64,000 bases of DNA from positions 74,073 through 138,072 of the forward strand of contig JBHIAE010000002.1 in assembly GCA_046758445.1 (NCBI GenBank). The letters run 5' to 3'. This stretch comes from Candidatus Thorarchaeota archaeon (GTDB lineage Archaea; Asgardarchaeota; Thorarchaeia; Thorarchaeales; Thorarchaeaceae). A program made the position numbers and the translations under genes. This document shows, piece after piece, positions 47,227 through 64,000 of the stretch (positions are counted from its first letter, which is position 1; each line of letters opens with the position of its first letter). The notes beneath the pieces were generated by a model. It was not told the DNA's origin, did not search any database, and was given only the letters and a program-made list of their open reading frames with translations.

Positions 47227-47718
47227 GTGGTATTGTCGCAATGTGTTCGGTGTGGTGCACAAGTGGGTGATTCAGCAGAGAGAGTCTTCCGTAGAGGTGA
47301 AGGCAGATACCCATTGCTATGCGAACCTTGCATGCTGCGGGAGATGATTCGGCGGTCAGCAGAGCGCGTCTTGTGCGAATCATGTGGTCGACGGATTGAA
47401 TCCATCCGTCGAATTGCCATCAGGGACATGGAGGGACACGGGCAAAGCCCTTCGCGTCTATGTCTTGCCTGTTTGAGGAAGCAACTTGATGAGTCGGCCA
47501 CCGCCCCCTATGTTCATCCTAGGCACGGCACAAAGCGTGGCTTGTACAGAGATGATAGGCCGCCGGATGGGTCGCCATTCATTCAACGGACCAAACACAA
47601 GGTTCTCTGTCCATGGTGTTTCTTCTCGCTCTCATCCAAAGACATTACGCAACTCGTGGAGGAAGGAGAGATTCACTGCCACGACTGCGGAGCCACACTG
47701 ACACCTGACATTCTGTAG
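47227..47718 (+). CDS. Multi zinc-finger hypothetical protein
   Basis: Six CxxC pairs. Confidence 0.65.
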   Translation: MVLSQCVRCGAQVGDSAERVFRRGEGRYPLLCEPCMLREMIRRSAERVLCESCGRRIESIRRIAIRDMEGHGQSPSRLCLACLRKQLDESATAPYVHPRHGTKRGLYRDDRPPDGSPFIQRTKHKVLCPWCFFSLSSKDITQLVEEGEIHCHDCGATLTPDIL

Positions 47719-47805
47719 AATCTAATACCTAGAGAGATGAGTCGCATTCTATCGAATCAAATGCATCAGAACTGCCCCTCTGAGTGGGTGTGTTCCGGTC
47801 CCTTG

Positions 47806-47820
47806 GAAAGCTTTTTATCG
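47806..47820 (+). promoter_or_regulatory. Putative rRNA promoter (BRE + TATA)
   Basis: GAAAGCTTTTTATCG about 320 bp upstream of the 16S gene. Confidence 0.5.
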
Positions 47821-47984
47821 GAATTGCTCGGGATTCATTCAGCCTTCGCGCCCTAACGGTGTCAGACCTGATGCTGTCGGCGAGTGCCAAGCGATGATGG
47901 TCCGTGATTTCCAGGCGCGAGAATAAGATGCGGACGTGAGATAGACCGGTGCAATTGTGCCGGAATCCCCTCGTGTCTAAGATA

Positions 47985-48056
47985 TGCTCAACAGTGTGCA
48001 GGTTAATTGGGTAAGTTCACCAACTATCCCCGTTACGCCTGTACTTCATCAAGCTA
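47985..48056 (+). other. 5' strand of the pre-16S processing stem
   Basis: TGCTCAACAGTG (47985-96) pairs with CACTGTTGAGCA (49927-38); GGGTAAGTTC (48009-18) pairs with GAACTTGCCC (49909-18); TCCCCGT/ACGGGGA; CCTGTACTTC/GAAGTACGGG. Confidence 0.8.
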
Positions 48057-49008
48057 AGTTCAAGTGTGTATGAAGGTCATGCGCTGGACCGATACTACTC
48101 CGGTCTACCTTGCCAATGTGCATGATTGAGATCAACTCTAGTTGATCCTGCTAGAGGACACTGCTATCGGCTTGGGGTTAAGACATGCAAGTGGAACGGG
48201 CTCGCATCCGAGTCCGTCGCGAACGGCTCAGTAGTGTCGCTAACCTACCCTGTGGAGGTGGACACCGCCGGGAAACTGGCGTTAATCCACCGTAGGAGCA
48301 TTGTTCTGGAAATGATGTTGCTCTGATATGGGGGCCCTAGGTATGTTGGGCTCTCCGCCGCAGGACGGGGCGGCACCGGATCATACTTGTAAGTGGGGTA
48401 ATTGCCCACTTAGGTTGTGACCCGAACGGGCGATGTAAGTCGTGGCCCGGAGAAGGGCACTGAGACAAGGGCCCTAGCCCCACGGGGTGCAGCAGTTACG
48501 AAACCTCACCAATGCGCGAAAGCGTGAGTGGGCCAAGCCGAGTGATGGGGGATAACTCCATCTGTGGCGAATCCGTATGATGGATTGCTAGAAAGGAGAG
48601 GGCAAGGCTGGTGCCAGCCGCCGCGGTAAAACCAGCTCTTCGAGTTGTGTCCATGATTATTGAGCTTAAAGCGTTCGTAGCCTGTTTGGTAGGTTCCTGC
48701 TTAAATCCGGCCGCCCAACGGTCGGCCTGGTAGGAATACCGCCTTACTTGGGAGCGGGAGACGGCGACGGTATTTCACAGGTAAGGGTGAAATCTAATGA
48801 TCTGTGGAGGACCACCAGTGGCGAAGGCGGTCGCCGAGAACGCGTCCGACGGTGAGGGACGAAACCCAGGGGAGCGAATCGGATTAGATACCCGAGTAGT
48901 CCTGGGCGTAAACGATGCCCGTTAAGTGTTGCATTGGCCACGAGCCACTGCGGTGCTGTAGCGAAAGCGATAAACGGGCCGCTTGGGAAGTACGGTCGCA
49001 AGACTGAA

Positions 49009-49038
49009 TTTGAGAGCCGCTCCGACTCTCGACAGGTC
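49009..49038 (+). other. 16S mini-intron 1 (30 nt, ~E. coli 908)
   Basis: Splits GACTGAA|ACTTAAAGG; GAGAG/CTCTC hairpin, relaxed BHB. Confidence 0.88.
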
Positions 49039-49077
<39 letters not shown>

Positions 49078-49482
49078 GCTTGCGGTTTAATTGGACTCAA
49101 CGCCGGAAAACTTACCCGCCCAGACAGCCGGATGAGAGCCAGACTGATGATCTTGCTCGACGAGCTGAGAGCTGGTGCATGGCCATCGTAAATTCGTGCC
49201 GTGAGGTATCAGCTTAAGTGCTGCAACGAATGAGATCCCTGCCACCTAGTTGCCAGCCGGGGGCTTCGGCCCTGTCGGGGCACACTAGGGGGACCGCCAG
49301 CGAAAAGCTGGAGGAAGGTGGGGGCCACGGTAGGTCCGTATGCCGCGATATGGGCGGGGCCACACGCGTGCTACAATGGCAAGGACAATGCGTTACGACA
49401 CCGAGAGGTGAAGTCAATCGCGAAACCTTGTCGTAGTTGGGATCGGGGGTTGGAACTCACCCCCGTGAACCTGGAATCCCTA

Positions 49483-49512
49483 TCGACTGCAGACTCCCTG
49501 TAGTCGGGGAAA
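49483..49512 (+). other. 16S mini-intron 2 (30 nt, ~E. coli 1346)
   Basis: Splits GGAATCCCTA|GTATCCG; BHB with UCCC/GGGA helix, CGACTGCAG/CTGTAGTCG stem. Confidence 0.9.
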
Positions 49513-49552
49513 GTATCCGCGTGTCACTATCGCGCGGAGAATACGTCCCTGC

Positions 49553-49582
49553 AGGGGACGTGAATCCCACGTACCCGGGGAA
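49553..49582 (+). other. 16S mini-intron 3 (30 nt, ~E. coli 1386)
   Basis: Splits GTCCCTGC|TTCTTGCACAC; CCCU/GGGG helix, ACGTG/CACGT stem. Confidence 0.88.
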
Positions 49583-49686
49583 TTCTTGCACACACCGCCC
49601 GTCGCTCCATGCGAGCGGCTTCTGGGTGAGGCGTTATCCTTTGGGTGATTACGAATCTGGGGGTCGCAAGTAGGGAGAAGTCGTAA

Positions 49687-49716
49687 CTGCGTCACACTTC
49701 GTGGCGTGGCGGAACA
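49687..49716 (+). other. 16S mini-intron 4 (30 nt, ~E. coli 1500)
   Basis: Splits AAGTCGTAA|CAAGG (junction ambiguous by +/-1); TGCGTCAC/GTGGCGTG stem. Confidence 0.88.
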
Positions 49717-49747
49717 CAAGGTATCCGTAGCGGAAGCTGCGGATGGA

Positions 49748-49778
49748 AGAAGTAGAGAGTCACTCTCGCTTCCATCAA
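49748..49778 (+). other. 16S mini-intron 5 (31 nt, just before the anti-Shine-Dalgarno)
   Basis: Splits CGGATGGA|TCACCTCCT; BHB GAUG/CAUC with GAA and AAU bulges, GAAG/CUUC and GAGAG/CUCUC stems. Confidence 0.9.
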
Positions 49779-49946
49779 TCACCTCCTATGTTTTCTACTT
49801 CATAGAGGTAGAAGCAGCTTGCTTGCAGTCCCTCGGGACTGCGAGAGAAGTACGGGCCTTCGACGACGGGGAATGCGGTGCAATCGTGACAGGTTGCCCA
49901 AGGCACGGGAACTTGCCCTAGCCGCTCACTGTTGAGCACCCTTTTC
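49769..49946 (+). repeat. 16S 3' end + processing trailer, copy A (resident)
   Basis: Homologous to 55094-55272; pairs with the 5' leader. Confidence 0.9.
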
Positions 49947-49989
49947 ATTTTGCATTAGATATTCCAAGATGAGATGACACTCCGTTCGA

Positions 49990-50727
49990 TCAACGCAGAG
50001 GCAATCCCTTCTTGAGCCTCTTCAGTTTGAACCTCAGGTCATCCAGCATCTCTTGGTAGTCGATGATATGCTCCTCAGGTCTCTCATCATTTTCAAAATA
50101 TGACTGAAGGAATTCCTCAGTCTCGGCGACAAAGCCCTCTATGATTTCATCTATGTCCCACTTCTTTCCCTCCGGAGGGATGAGGGCACCTGAGCTCACT
50201 CTCTCGCCAGTGATGGATGAAAAGACGCTGACCTGAATGCCACCATAGTCACTGGTGAGTACAACCTGTAGCTGCTCTGAGTCCAGACTGAGAAACGTTC
50301 CTAGGTTCACGGGTCTCAGGTTGAGAGCCCTGGCAATTCGCTTGCTCTCCCTGAATACGATGCCCTTTCTCTCCTTTGGGTCAGTCTCAAACGAGATGTT
50401 GAGCCTACATCTTCGACCCTCAAGGAAGACCTCTTTGGAGCTGATGAGACTGGACACATCGACATCAGAGAGGGGGGAGTTCTCTAGTGCTGACAGGTCT
50501 GAGGCGTCACTCTCTATCCTCCAACAATGACCATGAGCCGAGGCGGTCCCATCAACAAGTGGACAGACACTCTCATCATGTGAGACTGAAACATCTGTTT
50601 CGATTGGAGGTTGATCGAGCAACGCGCTGCAAGTCAGAGGAAAGGGTACATTCACCAGTACAAATGGGGTCTTTCGTTCGATATATGGTCTGAGTAGTTG
50701 AAGCTCCCCATACTCTATATGACTGTA
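49990..50727 (-). pseudogene. 5'-truncated paralog of the 1717-aa protein (C-terminal ~245 aa)
   Basis: IEYGELQLLRPYIERKTPFV..VPFPLT...HDESVCPLVDG...HGHCW aligns with IEYAELQLLRPYVERKTPFV..VPLPLT...HDENRCPLVDG...HGTCW. Confidence 0.88.
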
Positions 50728-50786
50728 ACTTCAGTCATGAAGTTACAAGTGAAACTTTATCAGAATATATGACAAACTTATCATAT
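50724..50786 (+). promoter_or_regulatory. Palindromes upstream of the mer cassette (putative operator sites)
   Basis: TGTAACTTCA-N4-TGAAGTTACA (50724-47), TTTAT box, ATATGA-N8-TCATAT (50767-86). Confidence 0.6.
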
Positions 50787-51111
50787 GATATCTTTGTCAT
50801 TAGATACCAATCCAATGGTCCTGTTCTTCAAGGGCTTAGCCAACGAAACAAGACTGTCACTCCTAAGGACACTCAGCAATAGACCAATGTCTGTTTCAGA
50901 GCTCTGTGCAGAGCTCGACTACGAGCAGAGCCGCGTTTCCCACAACTTGACATGTCTTGAGTTCTGTGGGTTCGTAAATAGTGAGAGGGATGGAAAGAAC
51001 AAGATCTATTCACTGAATGAAGAAACGATTGGACCACTCATGGGTATTGTTGACAATCATATCAGACAGCACGGTCAGAATCTCTTGCAGTGCAAGGTAC
51101 TGAAGAGATGA
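50785..51111 (+). CDS. ArsR/SmtB family regulator (probable Hg-responsive)
   Basis: FKGLANETRL, VSHNLTCLEFCG; adjacent to merA. Confidence 0.88.
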   Translation: MISLSLDTNPMVLFFKGLANETRLSLLRTLSNRPMSVSELCAELDYEQSRVSHNLTCLEFCGFVNSERDGKNKIYSLNEETIGPLMGIVDNHIRQHGQNLLQCKVLKR

Positions 51112-51166
51112 AAGAGGTCCGTTACAGAATGATGATGCTCAGTAACTATAGAAATGGATTGAAAAA

Positions 51167-52873
51167 TTGAGGTTGAACAAGATGGAAGATGAAGAGAGGA
51201 AACACGAGATTAGATTGAGAGTCAAAGGGATGACATGTGACAGCTGCGCTGTACATGTCCAACGAGCTCTTGAGAATGTTGATGGAGTGAACTTGGTCGA
51301 TTTACCAAGTTGGAAGTCCGAGTCAGTACGAGTCATTGCAAGATCAACAATTCCAGATAAGGAACTAACAGATGCTGTCAAAAATGCAGGATATAGTGCT
51401 GAAACAGACAGCAGGTCTGAAACTCACTTGGAACCAGTACTTCCAGTCACACCGAAGACTACAGGATATGACCTTGCTGTGATAGGAACAGGTGGAGCAG
51501 GAGTTGCTGCAGCCATAAAGGGCGCGGAGCTCGGCTACAGAGTCGCTCTAATTGAACGCGGAGAAATCGGAGGAACCTGCGTGAATGTCGGTTGCATTCC
51601 GTCAAAGACACTCATTCGAGCTGCAGAGTCATTTCACAATGCCAAGCACAACCCATTTCGAGGCGTGACAACCACATCAGGAGACCTCGTATGGAAGGAA
51701 GTGATTCTCCAAAAAGACTCACTGATAGAAACATTGCGACGAGAGAAGTACATCGACGTAATCGATGCCTACAAGGACAAGATCTCTGTTTTCAAGAGTC
51801 AAGCTCGACTTACTCATGATGGTGGTGTACAGCTAGAAAATGGGCAAACGATACAGCCTTCCAAGATTGTGATTGCGACAGGAGCAAGACCTCGAATTCT
51901 CTCAGTTGAAGGAGTGTCGGACACAAGTGTGCTTACTAGCACAAGTCTGATGGAAATCAACCAGCTGCCGAAATCGCTCATTGTTATTGGAGGACGGTCA
52001 GTCGCTTTGGAGCTAGGTCAAGCATTCTCGAGGTTTGGGACGAAAGTTACGATTCTTCAACGTAGTAACACGATAATCCCTGCACATGAACCGGAGATTG
52101 CTGAAGCACTTATGGGCTATCTTGAAGAAGAGGGGATAGAGATTATCACTAATGTCAGAGTATTATCGATCGCTGACTCCGGGGAGAAGATTGTTACAGC
52201 ACAAGTCAATGGCGACACGAGAGAGTTCAAGGCTGAGCATGTTCTAATGGCTGTAGGTCGAAAACCAAATACTGAGGACATGGGGCTCTCTGAGGCTAAC
52301 GTCGAACTTGATGAACATGGCTTCATTAAGGTGGACTCTCAAATGCGGACCAGTAATGAGCATGTGTTTGCCGCTGGTGATGTCGCAATCCTACCTAAGT
52401 TTGTCTACGTTGCTGCTGCATCTGGTGGACTAGCAGCTGAAAACGCACTTAGGAACAAAAGAAAGGAACTCGACCTTTCAATCATGCCCGGTATCATCTT
52501 CACCTCGCCTCAAGTTGCGGTTGTAGGTCTTACTGAAGACAAGGCAAAGGATGCTGGATACGAGGTAAAAGTGAGCATATTACCTTTAGAATATGTCCCA
52601 AGAGCATTGGCGGCTCACGACGTACGGGGTCTCATTAAGCTCGTTGCCGATGCAGAATCCAATTGTCTTCTTGGTGCGCATGTTCTTGCAGAAGACGCTG
52701 GCGAGATAATTCAAACAGCGGTCATGGCCATTCTAATGGGGCAGAAATATGGTTTCACAGTATCAGACTTCCAGAGTTTATTGTTCCCCTATCTCGTACA
52801 GGTTGAGGGATTGAAACTTGCGGCTCTGGCATTTTATAAGGATGTTTCTAAGCTATCTTGCTGTGCAAGCTAA
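51167..52873 (+). CDS. merA: Mercuric reductase
   Basis: N-terminal HMA GMTCDSC, GGTCVNVGCIPSK, FVYVAA, FPYL, C-terminal LSCCA. Confidence 0.95.
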   Translation: MRLNKMEDEERKHEIRLRVKGMTCDSCAVHVQRALENVDGVNLVDLPSWKSESVRVIARSTIPDKELTDAVKNAGYSAETDSRSETHLEPVLPVTPKTTGYDLAVIGTGGAGVAAAIKGAELGYRVALIERGEIGGTCVNVGCIPSKTLIRAAESFHNAKHNPFRGVTTTSGDLVWKEVILQKDSLIETLRREKYIDVIDAYKDKISVFKSQARLTHDGGVQLENGQTIQPSKIVIATGARPRILSVEGVSDTSVLTSTSLMEINQLPKSLIVIGGRSVALELGQAFSRFGTKVTILQRSNTIIPAHEPEIAEALMGYLEEEGIEIITNVRVLSIADSGEKIVTAQVNGDTREFKAEHVLMAVGRKPNTEDMGLSEANVELDEHGFIKVDSQMRTSNEHVFAAGDVAILPKFVYVAAASGGLAAENALRNKRKELDLSIMPGIIFTSPQVAVVGLTEDKAKDAGYEVKVSILPLEYVPRALAAHDVRGLIKLVADAESNCLLGAHVLAEDAGEIIQTAVMAILMGQKYGFTVSDFQSLLFPYLVQVEGLKLAALAFYKDVSKLSCCAS

Positions 52874-53020
52874 ACAAATGGCTCTTTCAGTAAAAGCGGG
52901 TCTTAGTACAAACATCTCAAAACAGCTTAGCGCTTCAGCGGGGCTTTCAGCTCACCACGATTGATGCCTTACTTATGCAGCTAAAGCAATGCTCTTTTCT
53001 CCTGATACAGTGAGAGTCAT

Positions 53021-53581
53021 TTGGGAATGCTGATGAGAGAAGTGAAATTCGAACCAGATTTGAGCAAACGCTTGCAGAAACAGTATGGGATGGAGAACCC
53101 CCCCGCCACCCTATCTGAGGTCATCAAGTTTGTCAAGGCACAGGTGCTTGCAACAGCTGGGGGTCGAGAATGGGTAGCATCGATTCGGAAAGGCAAGGTC
53201 ACAATCGGAGAAACGGACTTAGAGCGTGGGCTGTCCATCGTTTCGCCGGACGGGCGCGAGATAAAGGTCATGTGCGGCTACGATTCCCTGGGGACGGCTC
53301 TGCTACGCGGGGAAGGCCTAGTCAAGGCCACATGCTTCCACTGCGGTGAGAAGATGGAACTCGAGATTGAGGACAGCAAACTCGTTCATGCCTCCCACCC
53401 CTCAATCGTTTTTTGGATAGGAGACGGCCCTAAGGGCATACCATTCTGTGACCACTACAACTTTTTCCCGGATCAGAAACACCTAGATGGCTGGCTGGAT
53501 ACGAACCCTGAGGAGCTTGGTGTTGTACTATCTTTGGATGAAACGATTGAATTCCTGAATCTTTCGCACAAAGGATTGTGA
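53021..53581 (+). CDS. merB: Organomercurial lyase MerB-like protein
   Basis: MCGYDSL (cf. WCAxD), CFHCGE, C..YNFF; downstream of merA. Confidence 0.75.
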   Translation: MGMLMREVKFEPDLSKRLQKQYGMENPPATLSEVIKFVKAQVLATAGGREWVASIRKGKVTIGETDLERGLSIVSPDGREIKVMCGYDSLGTALLRGEGLVKATCFHCGEKMELEIEDSKLVHASHPSIVFWIGDGPKGIPFCDHYNFFPDQKHLDGWLDTNPEELGVVLSLDETIEFLNLSHKGL

Positions 53582-53605
53582 GTCAGATTTCGTATCTTCT
53601 TGTTT

Positions 53606-53705
53606 GATGTCTTCCCTCTGAGGTAAAGAGAATAAGAGGCTAACGGGGCTGGGTGTACAGGTAACCTGCCCCAGCACACAACGCTGAGCATTCTTTCATT
53701 TTGCA
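53606..53705 (+). repeat. Degenerate 16S trailer, copy C
   Basis: ACGGGG..GGTG..CTGCCCCAGC..CTGAGCATTCTTTCATTTTGCA resembles 49866-49954. Confidence 0.6.
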
Positions 53706-54203
53706 ATGCTCATACATTTCGGATATCCAAAATGTCTAGCCGGGATGAGATCGAAAAGTCCAGGTGGGCTGATTGTTACGAGCAAAGGCCATCCGATTAC
53801 AAGTGAAAGTCCGAGGACTTAAGATAGAGTATCTCAGGTCAGAAAGTACTCGACATTGATACCTATGGATGTTTTTTTGCTGTTTTCTGTGCCATCTTTC
53901 TCACTCCACCAAGACCCGCTCTTTCGTATATTGAAGATAGTAATTTACATAGCAATCATTGTATAATTATAGTATTCTATTGATTTTTTGATTATATTTA
54001 TAAGCGAGTCACAATCCGCCCAATCGTGCCTATCTATTATATAGACACGTAATGGTACACAGGTACAGAAGAAGACCGCTGCCGACATGATGATTGGTGC
54101 CTGCATTGGATTGCCTATGATGTGTAGAGCATGCGTAAACTCTTGGCTGAAGTGAATTCCCATCACTGTGGAGCATTCCTCTTAATATTGAGAAGGGATT
54201 AGA

Positions 54204-54509
54204 TTGGAGAAGGAAGGACAAATCCAGATATTGGAGAACGCATTGAAGCGTCTTAGAAGTGATGCACTGCTTATTCTATCAAAGATTGACCTCCCAGCAG
54301 ATTTGGAGGAGGTTGATGAGATCCTCAGAGAGGAGGAGTGGCTGGCAGGTCCTGATGAGCATGCAGTCATTGATTTGATCCGTAGCTTGGCCATCATAGC
54401 TACAGCCCTCAGACCAGACGTCTTTGGAGAAGCTATAAGACTGTTGATTCGTGTACTGAAGGACGATTTTGGAGAAGATGAATGGGAGGTTAATGACCAT
54501 GAGGATTAA
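54204..54509 (+). CDS. Hypothetical acidic protein
   Basis: ORF with a helical acidic profile; no motif recognised. Confidence 0.5.
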   Translation: MEKEGQIQILENALKRLRSDALLILSKIDLPADLEEVDEILREEEWLAGPDEHAVIDLIRSLAIIATALRPDVFGEAIRLLIRVLKDDFGEDEWEVNDHED

Positions 54510-54615
54510 TCTGTCTGCATTCATCTTCACTGGTCAGATCTCTAACGGAGATGCAACGGTTTGTTTAGCAGGTTTCTTTGAACGGTTTTATGCCAAAGGA
54601 GATGAGTTGTGAAAG

Positions 54616-55032
54616 TTGCAGTTTCTCCAAATACTTCTGGACCGGTTTGATAGTGATAGTGGAAATCCGCTGAAGAGGGCAATCGATGCACTTGATATGA
54701 TCGAATACTCAATCACCTATCCAGTGTGCAATACCATCACAAAGGAAGAGATAGAGGAAATCGAAGTACGTGTGAAGAAGCTGCTCACTGAGTTGAATAA
54801 TGATCCGGTTCTTGCCAGCAGAATTGAAAAGTGGTGGAATAAGCGTAGTCACTGTCAGGACACGGCCAAAAAGATGCATGTAAATGAACATGAGCACATT
54901 GACTTCCTTCGCTATCATGAGAGGATAATCAGCATCAGAAAGGCAAAGGTGGCTTTGATGAAGCATCTCAGAAACGAGGAATTGTCATTAGAGGAGCATG
55001 GCCTCTTAGGAAGCAAGTATCATCATTCATAA
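54616..55032 (+). CDS. Hypothetical protein
   Basis: ORF only. Confidence 0.5.
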   Translation: MQFLQILLDRFDSDSGNPLKRAIDALDMIEYSITYPVCNTITKEEIEEIEVRVKKLLTELNNDPVLASRIEKWWNKRSHCQDTAKKMHVNEHEHIDFLRYHERIISIRKAKVALMKHLRNEELSLEEHGLLGSKYHHS

Positions 55033-55093
55033 TCTGTCCGTGATTGCCTCCAGCCAATTAGACAACAGAGGCGCGTCATCGAGAATACATCAT

Positions 55094-55272
55094 CTTCCAT
55101 CAATCACCTCCTAAGTTTTCTACTTCTTAGAGGTAGAAGCAGCTTGTTTGTGGTCCCTTTGGGACTGCAAAAGAGGTACGGGTCCTAACGACGGGATAGC
55201 GGTGCAAAAGGAACTAGATTCCTCAGCGCCAGATTGGCACTTGCCCTGGTGTACGCTGTTGAGCACCCTTTC
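55094..55272 (+). repeat. 16S 3' end + trailer, copy B (starts inside intron 5)
   Basis: CTTCCATCAATCACCTCCTA.GTTTTCTACTTC.TAGAGGTAGAAGCAGCTTG...CTGTTGAGCACCCTTT. Confidence 0.92.
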
Positions 55273-55314
55273 TTTCTTCAATGGATGGGAAATCAGTACT
55301 AACGAGTGACGGTG

Positions 55315-58300
55315 CTACATCTTCTTCTCTATCCTTCTCTTCAGAGCCTCGACCCTCTTGAATCGTTCCTTATCACTATCCGCTTTCCATCTTCGAAGAC
55401 GTTCTTCAAGAATCTCAAGACTGTCTACCACAGCCGAGTGAGCAGCTTGAAGGTTTCTCTTTTTCAGATGAAACTTGGTCAGTTCTTCTAGAATGTCTGC
55501 AATCTCCTCCGAGAGCTCGGGGTCGTCCAAGGTCTTCTTCTTCAGTTCGAGTAATGCCTCAAGGTCACCCTCACTGTCATGTTCTCCCTTGGCAGTTGTC
55601 AGATGTTCAGTGTGAATAGCAACTAGAATGGACTCCATGTCATCAATCAACGAGTCGTAGTTCCGAACCCTCTCTTCCGGTTCTTCTCCTTCCCCAAAAT
55701 ACCCTGTGACAATGTTCTCAATATCATTAATTGCATTGCTGAGGGCAGTCTGCACATCCATCTCAATGCTCAAAGATGTGATCAGCCATGAGTAGACCTG
55801 CTCGCCAGTAGCATCAGAGATAGCTGATAAGACAACTCCGATACCATCCCTATCCCTTCTGACTGAACACTCGAGTTTCTCATGATCCATCCAAAGAAAG
55901 GTACCAGGGAGCAATCGTTTCAGACCAAGCTGTCTGGCAATACGGCTGCTCTCTCTATAGACCCCACCCTCACGTGATGCAAGGTCGTTCTCAAACTCTA
56001 GATCTAGTGCATATCGTGATCCTTCGAGAAACACTTCTCGTGCCGCGAGAAGACTTGATACATCTTGGTCATTGAGAGGCTTATCAAAGAGTGCGTTGAA
56101 GTCAGCAGGTCTTGTACTGCTTTCAGGTCTAAGCACCCAACATGTGCCGTGAGTTTCTGCTGAGCCATCCACGAGAGGGCATCTATTCTCATCATGTGCT
56201 ATTATGACAGACATCTTTCTAGGCACTTGTTCTGCCAACTCCTGACTGGTCAGGGGAAGAGGAACACTTGCGTGGACAAATGGTGTCTTTCTCTCTACAT
56301 AGGGTCTGAGTAGCTGCAGTTCAGCATATTCGATATCCCTGTAAGGATCCCATGTGAAGTAGACATTTGGACTCTTTGTGCTCTGCAGTGGTATACCATC
56401 AACCAACGGTCTACGTAGAATGCGAAGCAAGTCTGAGGTTTGCTCAGAATATCTGATGTCAAGTTTTTCCCCATTAGACTTGATGTTGATAGAATATGTC
56501 CCAGAGTCAATACCGAGTTCACACTGAACACTAATGATGTGTTGTTTCATTTGACCAATTTCCAGGAACTCGTTTTCAATCCTGTTTGGCAAGTCCGTTG
56601 GAATAGTCACTCCTGCAGGGACTTCTGGAATTCTGGATGAAGACATTGGTACTACCTGCAAACCTCTGATGTTCGTTATTGCACTCTTCTTTCTCGGAAT
56701 GATCACAAGCTCACCCAAAAGGTTCCAATTCCCCTCTGCAAAGAACCATACATACTCTGTCCCCTCCATCTTGCAGGTCAATAGACTATGGACTTCTTGA
56801 GGTTCCACAGTTGAAGCATGGTCCGCAATCTCACTGGCGTTCGACTCTGACCAACGAATTGATGAACCTGGATCCAATGGGTTCATACCAATCCAGAGAC
56901 CTGAACGAAGACGGTTCTGGTCATAGTGGTCCTCGAGGAATACCCAGTGTTCGTAGCCATCCCCACTTGGAGCCACCAGAAGCTGACCATACCTGACTGC
57001 TGACTGTACAGGCAGAGGTATTTGAGATAGGACTGAGGCTCTCTTGCAGAGGTTAGACCAAACAGCTCTGACATCGAACTTCGGTCTTGCAACTTCTGAC
57101 ACATCTCTCAGATAGAACCCGACCTGTCTTAGGTGCCAAGACTTCATCGTCATCCAAAGACTCTGAATCTGTTCAACCGGAAGGTCCGGATATTTCCTTG
57201 TCAGTGCCGCTAGCAGGAGAATCAAGTAGTTCCCATACAGGCTCGTGACATATGGTCTACTCTCAAGAAGCATCTCCAGCTGGTCCTGCTCATTCAATCG
57301 AAGACAAACGCCGAGTCTTCTCTCTCGAAACCATTGCATCGAGCCCCAGAGGTCAGAGGTCGCAGCATGGACCATAAACAGCTCTGAAACCCTGTTCAGG
57401 TCATCCAAAGCAGGCTGGACTCCCTTTGCAGGAATGATGCGCTCCAGCTGTTTGAGAAGGTCCAGCCAAGACACATCTGTCGCCCAAGACTCTTTTTGTC
57501 TGACAAGAAGTTTCAGAACCTGTCTGAGCCGTCGAAGCTCCACATTTCGGGCAGTCTGTTCCCTCAGGCTTCTGAACTCAAGGTGTGACTCATCAGGTGC
57601 TCTATAGGTCTGAGTGTTCAGAGTCCTCCGTTTCATTCGACGATATCGCCTGTAGTGCCGAGGGTGAGTGATTGTTTCATTGGGTATCAGTTGTTGATGA
57701 GAAACATAACCTCTCTTCCCCTTTGCTCTCGTTACTCTAGCACGATACCTCACCCTCGCCATGATACTCTTTGGCTTCATGGGTTTTCCATAGAGTGGTA
57801 TGACCTGGGAAGAGAGTGTGATACCATCTCTTTCCATCATCTTCTTACAGATGTTTGGATGAAGGACACAGAGCCAAGGAATGAGGTCGATTGAATCCTT
57901 GATCAGTTCTTCCCCAAGCTCGTTCATCCTGATGATGTCCTCAGCAGAGAGAGCATCACGCCCTCGATCTCCAGTGTGTCCCTTCTTCCTGCCTGTTCGC
58001 TTACTCTTCTTACTCCAGAAGCGTGCTGACCAGTTCTCAAGTATAGGCACTTCAATCAACTCTGTTTTGACTGACTCTCTTGTTTGTTTGACAATCACTC
58101 TCAGGTCATCGAGCATTGGTGTGGTCTGGACTGAGGTGTAAGGTCTGACTGGAAGATTCCAGACAATGTCCGTGACATGTAACCTGTGTTTAGATGAGTT
58201 CCAGAATGGGAGTAAGCAACGACTATGATACTTCTCTGACGTCCGCTCATCAGGTCTTGGCTGAAGGAACCAGACAGATGTGCTTCCTGTCTTGCTGATT

Positions 58301-60468
58301 TCCTGAATCATGTACCTCTCAAGCTCCTCCAACACTGGTCTGAGCCTTGGAGGGAGAGAGTCCTCAATCCACTGCCATCCACTGATAACGACAATACCCT
58401 TGGTAGATAGTGACTCAATCTCTGGGTGGTTTCCTCCTTGGAACAGGAACTGTTCAATGCTATGTGACATATCAATAATCTTGATGTTATCAAAGAAGGA
58501 TTGGACACCCTTTTCATGGCATGAGAGTCTGAGTCGCTTCTTGACTAGCTCATCATGACTGAATTCTCCAGAGAGATCCAGCCAAGTGATTGGTGTATTG
58601 TCACGCCATGAACTCAACTTCTGAAGATAGTGTAATCCATGCCAGTATCTAGCCAACCAAGCCGCTGTGAATCCTGAATTAGATGCTGATTTTGCACTTA
58701 GATACAGGATATGCCTTGTAGCGGTGTCCTGAACCTCTGAGAAGGGATCGAACTTGTCTTCGGTTTCCTGCGGGTTTTTCTCTGACTCCAATACTGTGAA
58801 CTGGTCCTCTGATAGTGAGTGGATGACCAAAGCCGCCCTCTGAGCAATAGGGTCCTTGGACCGGATGAGTAGCCTGTCACATCCTTTCAGCTTGCTCTTC
58901 AAAGAATGATCTTCTACCAAGATGTCCAGAAGCGAACGAACAACAGTCCGATTCAGTCCTATATCGAACTGAGTGTCTAGTAGGACAATCCCCTTGAGGA
59001 TATCTGGGAGCGACTCATCTCCTGTGAGTCTACGATACTCCTCCACAAGTCCGCCTGCATATAGACTCAATTGCTGAACGTCATCATCCTCAGGGACTTC
59101 AACAAGGGCATCATTCCACTCCTCATCTGTCATTCCTCTCTTCCTGACAATAAATCTTGGGACAGTCTTGTTTCTCTTCCCCTTCGATTTCTCGGTCCGA
59201 ATCTCCCAATCGAAGCTGGTCCGTGTCTTCATGTCAAAGACAGCAACCGGTTTCATTACAACCAGTTGCCCCGGTTTCTTTGGATTTGTAATCATAGTCC
59301 TGACAAACAGACCGAGGTCTATTCGACCAGGTCCCTCACCTGTTCCTAGTCGTGACTCGCCCACAAGAAGGTAGTCTTCGCCGGGCTGGAGAAAACGATC
59401 TCCTCTCAGGACTACTGACTCTGCAGTGTAAGTCTGTGGCAGTCCATCCGTGATGAGTCTGTGATACCTGATTCCCTCATATCGAGCTTTGTTCCTCACG
59501 ATTTTATACAGGTGTCTAGCATCCTGCGCCTTCAGCTTTGGATTCTTCTTTGGTGTGAGTTCCTTGAGAAACCGCGTCCATGTCTGTAGTTTTCGAGCTT
59601 CCTCCTTGGGCACTTTTCTGCTGGCTTGTTGAAGCTCTGTTATCTGATATTGAAAGAACTTCTCATCTAGAGGTTTATCATCACCTGTTCTAGTCCTTGA
59701 TGGGAAGACCTGCTTAGACGAACCTGTAACATACAGACCGTTCAGCTCGTCAACAAGTTCTCTAAGAATCTCATCAGCACACTTCTCCTTGACACTCGCT
59801 CTGGGACGCAGAAAATGACTGCTCCCAAGTTTGGTGTCTGCATAGATGTAGTCGACAAAAGGGGCAAGACGACGGATGAGTAGGAGTGCATATGAATCAA
59901 AGTCATTGGGGGGAACACCAAAGATTAAGGACTTGCGACACAACTCACGCCCATGAGACCGTATCATATCTGCAAGATCAAGCTCTGCCAAGTCCGCCCC
60001 ATGTGCAACGGGCACAGGACCAACTTCGTCGCTGGTGTATCCCCAGATGGTCTTTCTCTTCTGTTGTCCAATCTTTACTGGGGTTTCAAGTGGATACATC
60101 AGCAGGAAGTAATCTCTAAGTTTGGCTCCAAAGATGTTGATGAGCTTGTTTAACGGTCCAACAATTCCCTCTCTCTCGTTTCTCACTCGTTTGGTTTCGG
60201 TGTTTCCATAACTGGCTGTTGTTTCCCATATGTTCTCTAATTCTAGATCTCGAAGTCGTTTCTCTCTATCAGCAACAGGTGAGAAGTCAGGTTGTCCTTG
60301 TCTAAGACTTGTGTTCCACTTCTTGAGAGCAGCATCCAGTCGATTTTGCGCCTTTGAATACAGATGCTTTGTATCTTTGTTTGTACGTTCACGTAGCAAA
60401 CTCACTAGTGCTTTCAAACCAATGGTGTGTGCCTGAACCACTGTTTTTCCAGGATCTTCTGGAAACAC
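55315..60468 (-). CDS. 1717-aa unknown protein with a RecB/Cas4-like PD-(D/E)XK nuclease motif
   Basis: GRIDLG...VFDMKT...QQLSLY motif order; long intact ORF; paralog remnant nearby. Confidence 0.75.
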   Translation of the reverse strand: MFPEDPGKTVVQAHTIGLKALVSLLRERTNKDTKHLYSKAQNRLDAALKKWNTSLRQGQPDFSPVADREKRLRDLELENIWETTASYGNTETKRVRNEREGIVGPLNKLINIFGAKLRDYFLLMYPLETPVKIGQQKRKTIWGYTSDEVGPVPVAHGADLAELDLADMIRSHGRELCRKSLIFGVPPNDFDSYALLLIRRLAPFVDYIYADTKLGSSHFLRPRASVKEKCADEILRELVDELNGLYVTGSSKQVFPSRTRTGDDKPLDEKFFQYQITELQQASRKVPKEEARKLQTWTRFLKELTPKKNPKLKAQDARHLYKIVRNKARYEGIRYHRLITDGLPQTYTAESVVLRGDRFLQPGEDYLLVGESRLGTGEGPGRIDLGLFVRTMITNPKKPGQLVVMKPVAVFDMKTRTSFDWEIRTEKSKGKRNKTVPRFIVRKRGMTDEEWNDALVEVPEDDDVQQLSLYAGGLVEEYRRLTGDESLPDILKGIVLLDTQFDIGLNRTVVRSLLDILVEDHSLKSKLKGCDRLLIRSKDPIAQRAALVIHSLSEDQFTVLESEKNPQETEDKFDPFSEVQDTATRHILYLSAKSASNSGFTAAWLARYWHGLHYLQKLSSWRDNTPITWLDLSGEFSHDELVKKRLRLSCHEKGVQSFFDNIKIIDMSHSIEQFLFQGGNHPEIESLSTKGIVVISGWQWIEDSLPPRLRPVLEELERYMIQEISKTGSTSVWFLQPRPDERTSEKYHSRCLLPFWNSSKHRLHVTDIVWNLPVRPYTSVQTTPMLDDLRVIVKQTRESVKTELIEVPILENWSARFWSKKSKRTGRKKGHTGDRGRDALSAEDIIRMNELGEELIKDSIDLIPWLCVLHPNICKKMMERDGITLSSQVIPLYGKPMKPKSIMARVRYRARVTRAKGKRGYVSHQQLIPNETITHPRHYRRYRRMKRRTLNTQTYRAPDESHLEFRSLREQTARNVELRRLRQVLKLLVRQKESWATDVSWLDLLKQLERIIPAKGVQPALDDLNRVSELFMVHAATSDLWGSMQWFRERRLGVCLRLNEQDQLEMLLESRPYVTSLYGNYLILLLAALTRKYPDLPVEQIQSLWMTMKSWHLRQVGFYLRDVSEVARPKFDVRAVWSNLCKRASVLSQIPLPVQSAVRYGQLLVAPSGDGYEHWVFLEDHYDQNRLRSGLWIGMNPLDPGSSIRWSESNASEIADHASTVEPQEVHSLLTCKMEGTEYVWFFAEGNWNLLGELVIIPRKKSAITNIRGLQVVPMSSSRIPEVPAGVTIPTDLPNRIENEFLEIGQMKQHIISVQCELGIDSGTYSINIKSNGEKLDIRYSEQTSDLLRILRRPLVDGIPLQSTKSPNVYFTWDPYRDIEYAELQLLRPYVERKTPFVHASVPLPLTSQELAEQVPRKMSVIIAHDENRCPLVDGSAETHGTCWVLRPESSTRPADFNALFDKPLNDQDVSSLLAAREVFLEGSRYALDLEFENDLASREGGVYRESSRIARQLGLKRLLPGTFLWMDHEKLECSVRRDRDGIGVVLSAISDATGEQVYSWLITSLSIEMDVQTALSNAINDIENIVTGYFGEGEEPEERVRNYDSLIDDMESILVAIHTEHLTTAKGEHDSEGDLEALLELKKKTLDDPELSEEIADILEELTKFHLKKRNLQAAHSAVVDSLEILEERLRRWKADSDKERFKRVEALKRRIEKKM

Positions 60469-60718
60469 CAGACTAACTCCTGAATCAAACTAAGCGGGTT
60501 TTTCCCTTTTCTATTTTGCTTGAAACCTGAAACTTCCACATTTTGAACCTCAAATTAGAAATACGTTTAATAAATTTAAATATGATTCTGTATCAAATAA
60601 AGTGTGGAGAATATCAAGCAACCTCCGAGAAATGAGGTTGAGTGAAACTCCCCGACCGGAAACGGGTCGGAAATTTAAATATGTGAGGTTAAATCTCGTG
60701 GGTCGCTCCAGTGGCGTG

Positions 60719-62368
60719 ATGATAACGGTCAAGGTCCCTGTGAAATGGGATGTGATGACAGACAGACAGAAGACACGTCTGTCCAGAATCACAAGTCGGG
60801 ATACCAGAGTCATCAAGGCCTATCTTGGAGTGATTGAGAAACACGAGAGAAACCTCCTTGTTGGAAAGAACAAGAAACGACTTGATGCAGGGAAGATAGA
60901 CGAACTAACATTATGCACGGATACAAGAACAGTTCTTCACGATTTCAAAGACAGATTCCCGAACATCTCAACGAACGAACTGCAGGAGTGTAGAGAGACT
61001 GCCATCGGAATGTGGAGGGTGTATCTCGCACTTGGTAGAAACAAACCACTACAGGGTACAGGGTACAGGTCAAAGAAGTTACCCCGTCACATGTTCACCC
61101 GGATGTTCAAGTTCACCTATACTCCTGAGAAAGAGATCAAACACTGGCTGATTTTTCGTGACTCGCTAGATTCAGTGAGAGAAGGAAGAAAGACTCATGA
61201 CAGGTTGGCAACACCTCTGAGTCCTTCATCATATCATCTCAATCGTCTGAAGTCTGGTGAGGTCAAATCTATCCAGATTGTGAAAGACAGGAATCGGAAG
61301 TGGTGGGTTCTTTTCAAGGTGAAGGTGAACTCAGAGTCTTTAGACGACGAATCAAAACCGTTCGCAGTGATTGGTATTGACTTGGGAATAAAGAAGGCAG
61401 TCTGTTCAGTAGTGCTGACCAAGAAAGGACTTCGACATGTAAGATATTGGACTGATAGAGAGAAGGCAAAACACATCGAAGGCTATGATAGGATGGTGGC
61501 CAGTCTTCAACAGAAGAGGGACTCTTCTCTCCATTCTGACGATGTCACAAGACGACTCCGAACAATCAGTTCAAGACGTGAGAACATCAGTTTTGACTAT
61601 GACCGTGTCCTTGTGAAAAGACTCGCTGAGCATATTCTCGAACTATCGCAAGAGTTTGACCTCTATGTTTCGATTGGCAAGTTGAAGGGAATCCGTAATC
61701 GTGCTAGGAAAGGTGATGGAAAAGGTCGTCGGTTTCGCGGCATGATAAACAGATGGTCTTTTGCTCGAATCACTAACTCTCTTCAGCACAAGCTCAGTAT
61801 GAGTGGATTCGACCCGAAGAGAGTCCATGCAGTATCAGAGGCATGGACAAGCATCAAGTGTCACAAGTGTGGGTCAAAAGGATACAGACCAAAACAGAGC
61901 TACTTTCTCTGTCACACCTGTGGATATCGCGACAACGCAGACAAGAACGCTGCAATCAACATTGCTCTGCGTTTGATTAGGCTCATTCCCTCCTTGAGGG
62001 GTGAGAAAGGACTAGGGACTTGGTTCTCTAGATGGAAGACCTCCCCGAAGACCCAAAGGACTCGTTCTAAAGGGATGTCCTTAGCTCCTGAGAGTTCACT
62101 AGACTCGTCTGTAGGGAGCACCGTGGCTGACTGTCATGACCAGGCTTCTCTTGAGGAGTTTGCGAGCAGTACCGACCTAGCCATGGAAAAGACCATGGAA
62201 ACACCGCCTGCCATCACGGAATCTAGTGACCATGATAGTATAGTGCAGCGGACAGAAACTCAGTCTGTGAAGAGGAGTCATATTCCAGTGACTCACAGCA
62301 AAACTCGTGCACACCCAACAGGAGAGGTCCTGCTGGTCGCTGGTGACAGCAGTCATGAGGAGGGTTGA
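60719..62368 (+). CDS. tnpB: TnpB/Cas12f-like RNA-guided nuclease with rearranged RuvC-II and a C-terminal extension
   Basis: RuvC-I VIGIDLG, SIGKL, SEAWTS, CHKC/CHTC Zn ribbon, RuvC-III NADKNAAINI; start moved to the ATG after the TTTAAATA box. Confidence 0.9.
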   Translation: MITVKVPVKWDVMTDRQKTRLSRITSRDTRVIKAYLGVIEKHERNLLVGKNKKRLDAGKIDELTLCTDTRTVLHDFKDRFPNISTNELQECRETAIGMWRVYLALGRNKPLQGTGYRSKKLPRHMFTRMFKFTYTPEKEIKHWLIFRDSLDSVREGRKTHDRLATPLSPSSYHLNRLKSGEVKSIQIVKDRNRKWWVLFKVKVNSESLDDESKPFAVIGIDLGIKKAVCSVVLTKKGLRHVRYWTDREKAKHIEGYDRMVASLQQKRDSSLHSDDVTRRLRTISSRRENISFDYDRVLVKRLAEHILELSQEFDLYVSIGKLKGIRNRARKGDGKGRRFRGMINRWSFARITNSLQHKLSMSGFDPKRVHAVSEAWTSIKCHKCGSKGYRPKQSYFLCHTCGYRDNADKNAAINIALRLIRLIPSLRGEKGLGTWFSRWKTSPKTQRTRSKGMSLAPESSLDSSVGSTVADCHDQASLEEFASSTDLAMEKTMETPPAITESSDHDSIVQRTETQSVKRSHIPVTHSKTRAHPTGEVLLVAGDSSHEEG

Positions 62369-62415
62369 ACATGGAAGTTGATGGTGGAGAGATTTCACTC
62401 GCCTTTTCAGGTCGG
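62160..62415 (+). ncRNA. Putative omegaRNA/tracr-like scaffold overlapping the tnpB 3' end (5' boundary uncertain)
   Basis: CCGACCTA (62172-79) is complementary to the repeat TAGGTCGG; TnpB omegaRNAs typically overlap the gene 3' end. Confidence 0.55.
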
Positions 62416-62544
62416 ACTAGGGATTCCGGGTTTGACTTGATTTCCAATAGGTCGGACCTTGTTACGACTCTATTCGTGTTAGGTAAGCCTTTCGCAAGCA
62501 GGAGAATATCACCAATCCACACACGTCGGGGATCACCTCCTAAG
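62408..62544 (+). CRISPR. Non-canonical mini guide array: (AG)GTCGG repeats plus three 16S-matching spacers
   Basis: GTCGG at 62411, 62451 and 62525, followed by ACTAGGGATTCCGGGTT, ACCTTGTTACGACT and GGATCACCTCCTAAG. Confidence 0.8.
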
Positions 62545-62634
62545 ACAGAATATCTCTCAAGGATTCTGAGAGTTGGATATATAGCCATTAAATCATGAAG
62601 TATAGATGATTTCCTAGAAGATGAGGGAAATAGA

Positions 62635-63651
62635 ATGAATCGTAAGAATAGGATGGGATTAATCAAGAAGCTTGAAAATAACAGAGGCTCCAAGGTACTG
62701 GCGTATATTACTGGTGATAGGAGGGGGCTAGAAACCAAGATTGCTATGGATGTCTTTCCAATGTTTCACGAGCATCTTAGCCAGATTGGGAAACAGGATA
62801 GGATTGATCTCTTCATCTATAGTCCTGGCGGATTGACGATTGCAGGATATGCTCTAGTGAATCTCATTCGTGAGTTCTGCAATGACTTCAATGTCATCAT
62901 CCCATTCAAGGCTCTGAGCACAGCAACTATCATCGCTCTTGGGGCTAATGAGGTTCTAATGACACCTATGGGACAACTAAGTCCTATAGATCCATCAGTT
63001 GAGCATCCATTGGGTCCTATTGTCCAGATTCCTGGTCAAGCCCGTGGTGGAATAGCCCCGGTAAATGTAGAAGATGTAAATGCATTCGTTGACTTGGCTA
63101 GAAAGGAAATCGGGCTAAGGGAAGAAGAATCCATGAAGAAGGTCTTTGAGCTTTTGGCTGAGAAGATACACCCTCTAGTTCTAGGAGCAGTTCATAGATC
63201 ACGTGAGCAGATTGGTTTCTTGGCTTCAAACCTGATGAAGTACCACTGCAATGATGAAAATCAAATTGAAAATGTAGTCAACGTTCTGACAAGAGAGCGT
63301 TTCTCTCACAATTACATCATAAGTCGTAGAGAGGCTAAAGAGAATCTATGTTTGAACATAATCGAACCAGATGAAGAACAGACTGAGATTATTGTTGACT
63401 TGTTCAATGCATATGAACAGATACTCAAGCTGAGTGTTCCTTATCATCCCGAAACTACCTTAGGTGATCAAGAGGTCGGTTCAGCTGTGTTCAACAGAGG
63501 AATTATAGAATCAGCAAATATGACACATGTATTTAGGACCAACAAAGAGATAAGAAGAGCTGAGGTAAGACAACCAGGAATTCCAGTTCCAGTCTATGCG
63601 TATCCTGAGCGGCTCATTCAAGAAGGATGGCTTGTCGATAACGAATTATAA
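62635..63651 (+). CDS. SDH family ClpP-fold serine protease
   Basis: IDLFIYSPGG, KALSTAT, LSPIDP, SHNYII. Confidence 0.85.
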   Translation: MNRKNRMGLIKKLENNRGSKVLAYITGDRRGLETKIAMDVFPMFHEHLSQIGKQDRIDLFIYSPGGLTIAGYALVNLIREFCNDFNVIIPFKALSTATIIALGANEVLMTPMGQLSPIDPSVEHPLGPIVQIPGQARGGIAPVNVEDVNAFVDLARKEIGLREEESMKKVFELLAEKIHPLVLGAVHRSREQIGFLASNLMKYHCNDENQIENVVNVLTRERFSHNYIISRREAKENLCLNIIEPDEEQTEIIVDLFNAYEQILKLSVPYHPETTLGDQEVGSAVFNRGIIESANMTHVFRTNKEIRRAEVRQPGIPVPVYAYPERLIQEGWLVDNEL

Positions 63652-63662
63652 GGTGTGGTTCG

Positions 63663-63857
63663 TTGGAAGAAGAGAAGAAGAAACTCCCCGTGTTTGAAAC
63701 CTCAAATACGAGTGGGCTCACTTCCATTCAACAACTAACAGATGACACTCCGAATGAAGTCTTTACAATCAGGCATAGCACATCCGGGACAGAAACTGTG
63801 CTTTTAGTGGAGCCTCCTGAAGAGGCAGAGGAGCAAGAAGAAACAGATGAAGAATGA
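63663..63857 (+). CDS. Small acidic hypothetical protein
   Basis: ORF after a GGTG RBS-like motif; Glu-rich tail. Confidence 0.45.
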   Translation: MEEEKKKLPVFETSNTSGLTSIQQLTDDTPNEVFTIRHSTSGTETVLLVEPPEEAEEQEETDEE

Positions 63858-63892
63858 ATTCCATCTTCATTAAATGACATTTCAACAATGTA

Positions 63893-63971
63893 GAGAGAAG
63901 TGTAGGCGGCGGTGATAGAGAGATTGGGGATCTGCCCTTCTGTCACTGTTGAGCACCCTTTCTCTTTTGCA
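63893..63971 (+). repeat. Partial 16S trailer, copy D
   Basis: GAGAGAAGT...GCGGTG...TGCCCT...TCACTGTTGAGCACCCTTT matches copy A. Confidence 0.8.
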
Positions 63972-64000
63972 CTCATCTATCCGTACTAGCATAATCATTA

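Follow-up and report, generated by a model that had tools for sequence, protein, structure and literature searches.

In Asgard archaea, homologs of Cas1 (aCas1s; groups Cas1H-Asgard-1 and -2) have been described that replace the usual transposases beside TnpB (Altae-Tran 2023, PMC10691335). In the passages of that report that deal with these loci, which trace aCas1 to Makarova 2020, aCas1 is regarded as a likely transposase and the loci are proposed to be transposons; a GTTCACTCA motif is described after tnpB, repeats are described near the locus, and a hypervariable, spacer-like stretch is noted at the place downstream of tnpB. Here, we analyzed a stretch of 64,000 nucleotides (nt) from a Candidatus Thorarchaeota archaeon (GenBank assembly GCA_046758445.1, contig JBHIAE010000002.1, which is contig C2 in our numbering), hereafter the window. 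Its source is a Thorarchaeota-type Asgard genome of 3.25 Mb on 113 contigs (92.7% complete). The window carries the gene for a giant protein, P0001, and a divergently oriented tnpB gene (Table 1), and this pair has in common with the described aCas1-TnpB loci, as far as those passages set them out, an Asgard host, a Cas1 homolog adjoining TnpB, a GTTCACTCA-type motif downstream of tnpB, and the proposal that the locus is a transposon. We filed P0001 as a member of this group because the motif sits in one alignment column after tnpB, and it very likely belongs to the catalogued kind. An initial annotation of this DNA, made from the sequence, had called the protein unknown, and that description gives way to the literature, where such a giant and TnpB pair is already catalogued as aCas1-TnpB. 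The position of the window copy at the 16S rRNA 3' trailer and its 16S-matching segments are unmentioned in the same passages.

As an overall explanation, we favor the view that the giant and its distinct TnpB clade form the core of a mobile-element family restricted to Thorarchaeia. The most likely role of P0001 is that of a predicted integrase/end-processing enzyme of a TnpB-carrying mobile element. The open reading frame (ORF) reported by the initial annotation proved to be real (Table 1), and its domains, its partner gene, its distribution, and its position beside the 16S gene are described below, followed by the explanations that compete with this one.

The N terminus of P0001 is predicted to form a Cas1-type catalytic domain. 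A structural model of residues 1 to 830 (model 1) was generated with AlphaFold2 from 22 homologs, with a predicted local distance difference test (pLDDT) score of 80. Using VIA-align, residues 1 to 236 matched Cas1 8flj_A with a Z score of 12.9 (root mean square deviation [rmsd], 3.6; 177 residues aligned), and the other Cas1 matches were 4n06_B (12.2), 4w8k_A (11.8), 7kft_D (11.8), 2yzs_B (10.9), 6qxf_I (10.9), 8d3p_A (9.8), and 5vvk_A (9.7); the casposase 6opm_A matched the same residues with a Z score of 10.7. These matches represented nine separate Cas1/casposase sequence clusters, including a Cas4-Cas1 complex (Z scores of 9.7 to 12.9, rmsd of 3.3 to 3.9 Å, and 153 to 193 residues aligned). 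All nine fell on the C-terminal catalytic domain of Cas1, and no non-Cas1 chain was found among the top 50 VIA-align matches for this region.

Because helical domains can reach Z scores this high by chance alone, we examined the conservation of individual residues in 55 family members (21 to 60% identity). E69 and H156 were present in all 55 relatives, D164 in 53, and D167 in 52, and R94, N107, G114, and R170 were likewise invariant. The first four of these residues were colinear with E152, H218, D230, and E233 of Asgard Cas1 (alignment A7). The motif order of Asgard Cas1 (i.e., E, R, PPxDPxNALLSxG, H, and LxLDLxE) was matched by the N terminus of the giant, and the spacing from E to R was 25 residues in both. 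We conclude from the model and the conserved residues that residues 1 to 236 constitute a predicted Cas1-type catalytic domain in which the E-H-D-D set is complete. The domain shares with Cas1 and the casposases (PF01867; 8flj, 4n06, and 6opm) the alpha-helical catalytic fold and the order of E, N, H, and D/E, but, unlike them, it reaches no Pfam threshold and is joined to other domains in a fused protein of 1,717 amino acids (aa). Only 1 of the 55 members matched Pfam Cas_Cas1, at an E value of 0.0027, which is short of the cutoff, and P0001 itself had no match in Pfam, NCBIfam, PADLOC, or the PDB sequences, whether the whole protein or a 24-sequence profile was used. The initial annotation had speculated that the protein might drive insertion or acquire guides. 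That guess points the right way because the N terminus is a predicted Cas1-type integrase domain, which the annotation had not seen.

A nuclease domain follows. The initial annotation had read GRID, FDMK, and QQLSLY as the motif set of a RecB/Cas4-type PD-(D/E)XK nuclease; these strings are residues 381 to 384, 411 to 414, and 465 to 470, respectively, and map to about 59060 to 59330 as claimed, and the motif set is intact and conserved far beyond chance in the 55 relatives. The motif order was E371, G381xxD384, (D/E)412xK414, and Q466xxxY470, with D384, K414, Q466, and Y470 invariant, E371 present in 54 relatives, and residue 412 being D in 28 and E in 27. In model 1, the secondary structure of the region (a helix, three strands, a hairpin, the QxxxY helix, and a strand) is in the order expected of the RecB/Cas4 type. 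The nearest named feature clusters in the ESM Atlas were all PD-(D/E)XK families (0.83 to 0.87, scores that serve as leads only). We conclude from these motifs, all of them intact, that the region is a predicted PD-(D/E)XK nuclease of the RecB/Cas4 type. It shares E, GxxD, (D/E)xK, and QxxxY with Cas4/RecB nucleases, and the presence of a nuclease and a Cas1 domain in one polypeptide with the Cas4-Cas1 fusions of types I-U and V-B, but the domain order of the giant (Cas1 and then nuclease) is the reverse of that in the known fusions. The four Fe-S (iron-sulfur) cysteines of Cas4 (PF01930), which are invariant in our Asgard Cas4 alignment (A11; C10, C148, C151, and C157), have no conserved counterpart in the giant, there being no conserved cysteine in the alignment of the nuclease domain (A12).

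The third domain (residues 580 to 810) is RecA-like. VIA-align matched it to KaiC 8dba_A (Z score, 12.1), XRCC2 8faz_X (11.8), Twinkle 8e2l_C (11.3), and Elp456 (11.0); Foldseek matched it to DnaB/RAD51 at an E value of 1e-4, and the Atlas shape search returned KaiC and XRCC2. Both strings on which the initial annotation had based a possible degenerate P-loop domain, ILYLSAKSASNSGFT (residues 587 to 601) and IVVISG (residues 692 to 697), were present as claimed. The P-loop reads SAKSASNSGFT (S594-A-S-N-S598-G599-F-T601), which departs from the Walker A pattern GxxxxGK[ST]. S598 and G599 were conserved, and a lysine at the Walker A K position occurred nowhere in the alignments. The degenerate P-loop call thus held, with a RecA/KaiC-like fold from which the Walker A lysine is gone, and the model indicates a domain that would be unable to bind ATP canonically. 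In its core fold (Z scores of 11 to 12) and its loss of this lysine, the domain resembles the inactive RecA-fold paralogs (XRCC2, Elp4/5/6, and KaiC-like proteins); it differs from them in having no sequence similarity to them and in being embedded in an integrase/nuclease giant.

The C-terminal half begins with a linker in which pLDDT fell below 50 at residues 819 to 830 of model 1 and at residues 43 to 49, 70 to 88, and 96 to 109 of model 2. For the C-terminal module, no Foldseek hit was obtained at an E value of 0.001 or better, and the best VIA-align Z score was 7.0, on a small terminal alpha/beta domain; the lack of a structural match does not make the fold new. Only eight positions were at least 90% conserved in 60 relatives (L862, I933, G1161, W1248, L1351, R1352, W1373, and P1405). 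These are hydrophobic, Gly, Pro, or Arg residues, none of them catalytic-looking, and the module looks structural or DNA binding rather than enzymatic. The C..H.C motif that the initial annotation described as conserved in the paralog (H1425-C1430-H1440-C1443) is indeed kept in close relatives and in the paralog fragment within the window, but the distant paralogs on contigs C85 and C37 have lost it, and none of its residues belongs to the 90%-conserved positions. A second Cas1-like domain at residues 961 to 1135 was considered and rejected: four Cas1 entries matched at Z scores of 4.2 to 5.1, and the hhalign probability was 0.3% against both Cas1 and the N-terminal domain. A shared YGN-L motif is the sole remnant of this idea.

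The giant is linked to TnpB without exception. The divergent pairing pointed out by the initial annotation is real, and a neighborhood check of homologs found TnpB divergently upstream of the giant at 16 of 16 loci, i.e., in all 4 in-genome copies with an assembled 5' flank (C2, C85, C37, and C102) and in 12 of 12 loci from other genomes. The spacing was 133 bp in the window and about 230 to 270 bp at loci L016 to L018. Across loci, the identities of the giant and of TnpB to the window pair fall broadly in parallel, with some exceptions. The divergent linkage of the two genes is therefore obligate. About ten copies of this TnpB clade occur in the genome of the window, and D260, E413, the NAD(K/R)N motif, and the CxxC pairs were conserved in eight in-genome copies (i.e., the RuvC D/E/D set and the zinc finger are intact).

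The region downstream of tnpB has features of a guide region. When ten tnpB 3' flanks were aligned, GTTCACTCA or a near variant fell in one single column: it was exact in C37, C24, C15, and L017 and carried one or two changes in C102, C70, C4, L016, L018, and the window (TTTCACTCG). As a plain pattern across the window, the motif occurred no more often than expected by chance, and it is informative only by its alignment position. GTCGG-led segments that match 16S ribosomal DNA (rDNA) come after it, three in the window and in L016 and two in L018. The three segments of the window match positions 49468 to 49482, 49679 to 49687 plus 49716 to 49722, and 49778 to 49788, and an insert of about 26 to 31 nt breaks up or cuts short all three of these sites in the resident 16S gene (e.g., GTCGTAAC[28 nt]ACAAGGT). 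These matches suggest that TnpB here may be aimed at uninterrupted 16S rDNA.

The distribution of the giant family is that of a mobile-element gene and not that of a core gene, as which the initial annotation had regarded it. A word-indexed search recovered 21 close homologs of P0001, of which the named ones were all proteins from Thorarchaeota metagenome-assembled genomes. An exhaustive profile search with residues 1 to 830 yielded 186 cluster representatives, most of them 1,400 to 2,350 aa long and aligned end to end. Among 151 Asgard genomes searched, the family was present in 17 of the 26 genomes of the window's own taxonomic family (f1), in 1 of 4 genomes of one other family, and in none of the approximately 120 remaining genomes. 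Relatives carry up to six or more copies per genome. The genome of the window holds at least four full or partial copies plus two fragments and one pseudogene, including full-length paralogs on C85 (1,616 aa) and C37 (1,857 aa), partial copies at contig ends (C102 and C36), and an N-terminal pseudogene on C38; a fragment of a diverged paralog lies directly past the first trailer unit in the window (Table 1). We read this as the pattern of a mobile-element gene because the family is patchy, multicopy, accompanied by fragments and a pseudogene, and almost restricted to one Asgard family. The copies on C37 and C102 were 87% identical over 4.4 kb, with similarity ending about 144 nt past the tnpB stop codon (i.e., at the right end). 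The genes adjoining the giant-TnpB pair differ among L016, L017, L018, and the window, which is a sign of mobility.

The window copy stands at the 3' end of a 16S rRNA gene. Rfam places this archaeal gene at 48135 to 49722, and its true 3' end is near 49790; the Rfam match ends early because short inserts interrupt the terminal region of the gene. A unit of approximately 230 nt, consisting of the last 45 nt or so of 16S and the trailer up to the CTGTTGAGCACCC processing-stem motif, is found in two copies (Table 1) and recurs in part at the contig end (63943 to 63971). The initial annotation had stated that the giant occurs twice in the same position relative to the 16S trailer. Both occurrences do lie just past a copy of this unit, but the second is only a C-terminal fragment of 246 aa. 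Likewise, the ends of the orthologs in two other genomes (identities of 83% and 64%) abut the 3' end of a 16S gene, at L018 (where Rfam gives a small-subunit rRNA match) and at L016. The order 16S, trailer, giant (convergent), and TnpB is considered conserved for the orthogroup because it is seen in three genomes. More distant giant paralogs are without any trailer sequence. Elsewhere in the genome, contig C14 (37361 to 65270; L027 and L028) has at least eight copies of the trailer unit on one strand and no 16S gene, and the units separate small cassettes (four PIN-domain proteins, a heavy-metal P-type ATPase, and others). The layout of C14 and of the window resembles a cassette array with attachment-site-like repeats between the cassettes. 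A 29-nt direct repeat (55253 to 55281 and 63943 to 63971) brackets the giant, TnpB, and a protease gene, and both of its copies belong to a multicopy repeat family.

Table 1. Features of the giant-TnpB locus and the adjacent 16S trailer region (positions are those of the window)
Feature	Position	Strand	Basis or remark
Trailer unit, copy 1	49723-49954		Directly before the paralog fragment
C-terminal fragment of a diverged aCas1 paralog, 246 aa	49993-50730	-	46% identical over 237 aa to residues 1376-1612 of P0001
Trailer unit, copy 2	55094-55281	+	Ends about 35 nt from the stop codon of the giant gene
aCas1 giant gene (P0001), 1,717 aa	55315-60468	-	Single open frame, GTG start, no internal stop
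Charged helical tail, residues 1626-1717	55318-55593	-	Alignment A2; only in a subset of close relatives
C-terminal module without a convincing structural match (last ~780 residues, ~840-1625); part 961-1625	55594-57588	-	pLDDT 88, 60 homologs
Lys/Arg-rich, poorly ordered linker, residues 820-960	57589-58011	-	pLDDT and basic sequence
Predicted RecA/KaiC/DnaB-like domain without Walker A lysine, residues 580-810	58039-58731	-	Predicted structure
Predicted RecB/Cas4-type PD-(D/E)XK nuclease, residues ~340-500	58969-59451	-	Conserved motif set
Predicted Cas1-type alpha-helical catalytic domain, residues 1-236	59761-60468	-	Predicted structure and conserved residues
Divergent intergenic region, 133 bp	60469-60601	.	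ORF coordinates
TnpB, 588 aa, with a C-terminal extension of ~130 aa	60602-62368	+	Pfam Cas12f1-like_TNB, 3.3e-13; NCBIfam guided_TnpB, 1.3e-26
Region downstream of tnpB: scaffold end TTTCACTCG (62393-62401), then GTCGG-led segments at 62411, 62451, and 62525	62369-62545	+	Flank alignment

Other genes and repeats were observed around the trailer units and the giant-TnpB modules. Between the two trailer units of the window are genes for an ArsR-type regulator, a MerA-like reductase with an HMA domain, and MerB (50785 to 53581), and a second MerB gene lies just past the TnpB gene of the C37 copy (L009:9348-9896). A gene for a ClpP-like serine protease of the SDH type (62635 to 63651), which may be cargo, separates the TnpB guide region from the next repeat unit. 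A shorter related unit (63890 to 63945) is likewise multicopy. At L017 (6080 to 7509), a 300-nt direct repeat (89% identical, comprising two flpD copies) brackets VapB-VapC beside the TnpB 3' end of the giant-TnpB module, a further instance of long direct repeats enclosing a cassette close to an element of this sort. A 9-kb Logan contig (run X1) continues for 114 nt past position 63922 into a match of about 85% to positions 50749 to 51021 (the ArsR-gene region), and the trailer-unit array thus seems to continue with a related cassette past the contig end. Logan joints from 55271/55276 to 63890, found in three runs that are likely source samples and skipping 8.6 kb, were considered as an empty site and rejected; they are ambiguous because the right side (63890 to 63945) is the multicopy repeat, found also on C14, and the short side is only 30 to 40 nt. 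Further upstream in the window, two tRNA genes, of 115 nt (33293 to 33407) and 104 nt (45776 to 45879), were detected by Rfam and missed by ARAGORN and probably contain introns.

Fusions of a helicase to Cas1 (1,323 to 1,363 aa) in two other Asgard genomes (L068:7038-11126 and L069:4973-8941) were considered as intermediates toward the giant and rejected because they show no similarity to it. They combine DEAD/Helicase_C domains with a C-terminal Cas1 domain (Pfam E values of 4e-9 and 7e-6), lie beside RAMP-family genes, and fit the "ARAMP" systems of the literature.

That P0001 is itself the enzyme moving the element is a tentative reading, which we place a little short of an even chance. Under it, the Cas1 domain would act by the transesterification known from Cas1 and the casposases, linking 3'-OH DNA ends to a target, and would thereby place the element itself, or segments of DNA, into a site that it prefers. 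Trimming or exposure of the ends would fall to the nuclease domain, like Cas4 on prespacers, and the dead RecA-like domain and the C-terminal module may contribute oligomerization and the binding of DNA or the target site, so as to assemble the complex on DNA. TnpB, guided by RNA from the region after tnpB, would cut the unoccupied or uninterrupted target (here, 16S rDNA), and repair after the cut would copy or retain the element.

Several observations weigh against P0001 as the moving enzyme. In profile comparisons with hhalign, the N-terminal domain aligned to Asgard Cas1 with E69 on the Cas1 E, N107 on the N, and LDxxD on LDLxE, and the nuclease domain aligned to Asgard Cas4 with the D and ExK motifs in register, but the probabilities were only 1.9% (P = 0.026) and 1.8% (P = 0.028), so these comparisons are no evidence alone. 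The structure-search matches of model 1 fell on the RecA and Cas1 domains; the nuclease fold is predicted from the order of secondary-structure elements. Unlike Cas1 and the casposases, the giant has no N-terminal beta domain (in Cas1, the dimer interface) and opens at helices that align to Cas1 from about residues 85 to 115 onward; it is likewise without a casposon PolB and without a CRISPR (clustered regularly interspaced short palindromic repeat) array, none having been seen in a repeat scan of 47500 to 64000. Canonical Cas1 and Cas4 were not found in the genome, and Cas2 was not searched for. Around the copies on C37 and C85 and at L017, there were no flanking repeats, convincing terminal inverted repeats, or target duplications. 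Moreover, the giant copies in this genome are old (no more than 87% identical), and recent movement is therefore unsupported; the copies could be relics. The last two points would also fit an element in which the giant is cargo or an accessory protein rather than the transposase and which moves by the mechanism of IS607 or IS200/IS605, the local copies having lost the transposase gene; the giant would then do something else, such as processing or repairing TnpB breaks or resolving homing intermediates. TnpB of the same clade stands alone five times in the genome, beside ordinary genes, and the locus shares with these insertion sequences a TnpB gene followed at the right end by a guide-RNA region, a boundary about 140 nt after tnpB, and scattered solo TnpB genes. 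However, a serine recombinase (PF00239), as in IS607, was found nowhere in the 92.7%-complete genome despite at least four giant-TnpB pairs, nor was one found beside the pair in L016 to L018 or among the flanking ORFs; Y1 TnpA was not searched for genome-wide. Both predicted catalytic centers of the giant are, in addition, strictly conserved over the 186 clusters, which fits an element-essential enzyme better than dispensable cargo. We regard the cargo explanation as unlikely, though it is the strongest competitor.

Two further explanations, both improbable in our judgment, assign the giant a function akin to CRISPR adaptation. It could be an adaptation-like module that installs or exchanges guides in the GTCGG-punctuated region, i.e., a CRISPR-less precursor of type V adaptation. 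Cas1 and a Cas4-type nuclease are the known pair for prespacer processing and integration, the number of GTCGG-led segments varies among the orthologous loci, and a hypervariable, spacer-like stretch is what the passages in PMC10691335 note at this place. Yet there is no regular repeat array (Cas2, as stated, was outside the search), and a "repeat" of 5 nt is too short to tell from chance; all of the segments target one gene, so that there is no sign of open-ended acquisition, and a deletion would equally explain the difference in L018. With similarly little confidence, the giant can be seen as a scaled-up CRISPR adaptation enzyme that inserts DNA at the trailer unit and duplicates the unit, or that installs 16S-directed TnpB guide segments. 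Such duplication would give rise to the arrays seen here, in which trailer copies separate kilobase cassettes that encode mercury resistance, PIN toxins, or a metal ATPase or that consist of the element. Least credible of all, to the point of being very nearly dismissed, is the idea that the giant serves the host as a core gene with a part in rRNA biology: three genomes have it in the same place beside the 16S 3' end, but it is missing from 9 of the 26 genomes of the window's family and from nearly every other Asgard genome searched, and it is multicopy, with divergent paralogs elsewhere that lack trailer sequence and with fragments and a pseudogene.

To our knowledge, no natural pairing of a Cas1-family integrase with the Cas12 ancestor other than aCas1-TnpB is known outside CRISPR. 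What is new here is the location beside the 16S 3' trailer, which three genomes share, together with the guide-like segments after tnpB that match 16S. The locus offers handles for study in the named residues of the two predicted catalytic centers (E69, H156, D164, and D167; E371, D384, D412, and K414), in the 16S 3' trailer unit as a candidate target, and in the guide-like segments, the resident 16S gene being interrupted at each of their targets. If the improbable adaptation-enzyme reading were true, the pair would be a natural Cas1-plus-TnpB system with integration-based memory outside CRISPR. Should the giant instead prove to travel as cargo in an IS607-type element, the published suggestion that aCas1 acts as the transposase would need revision. 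If the giant is the integrase, it would represent a new kind of Cas1-driven mobility and possibly a model of the way in which TnpB and type V adaptation modules came together.

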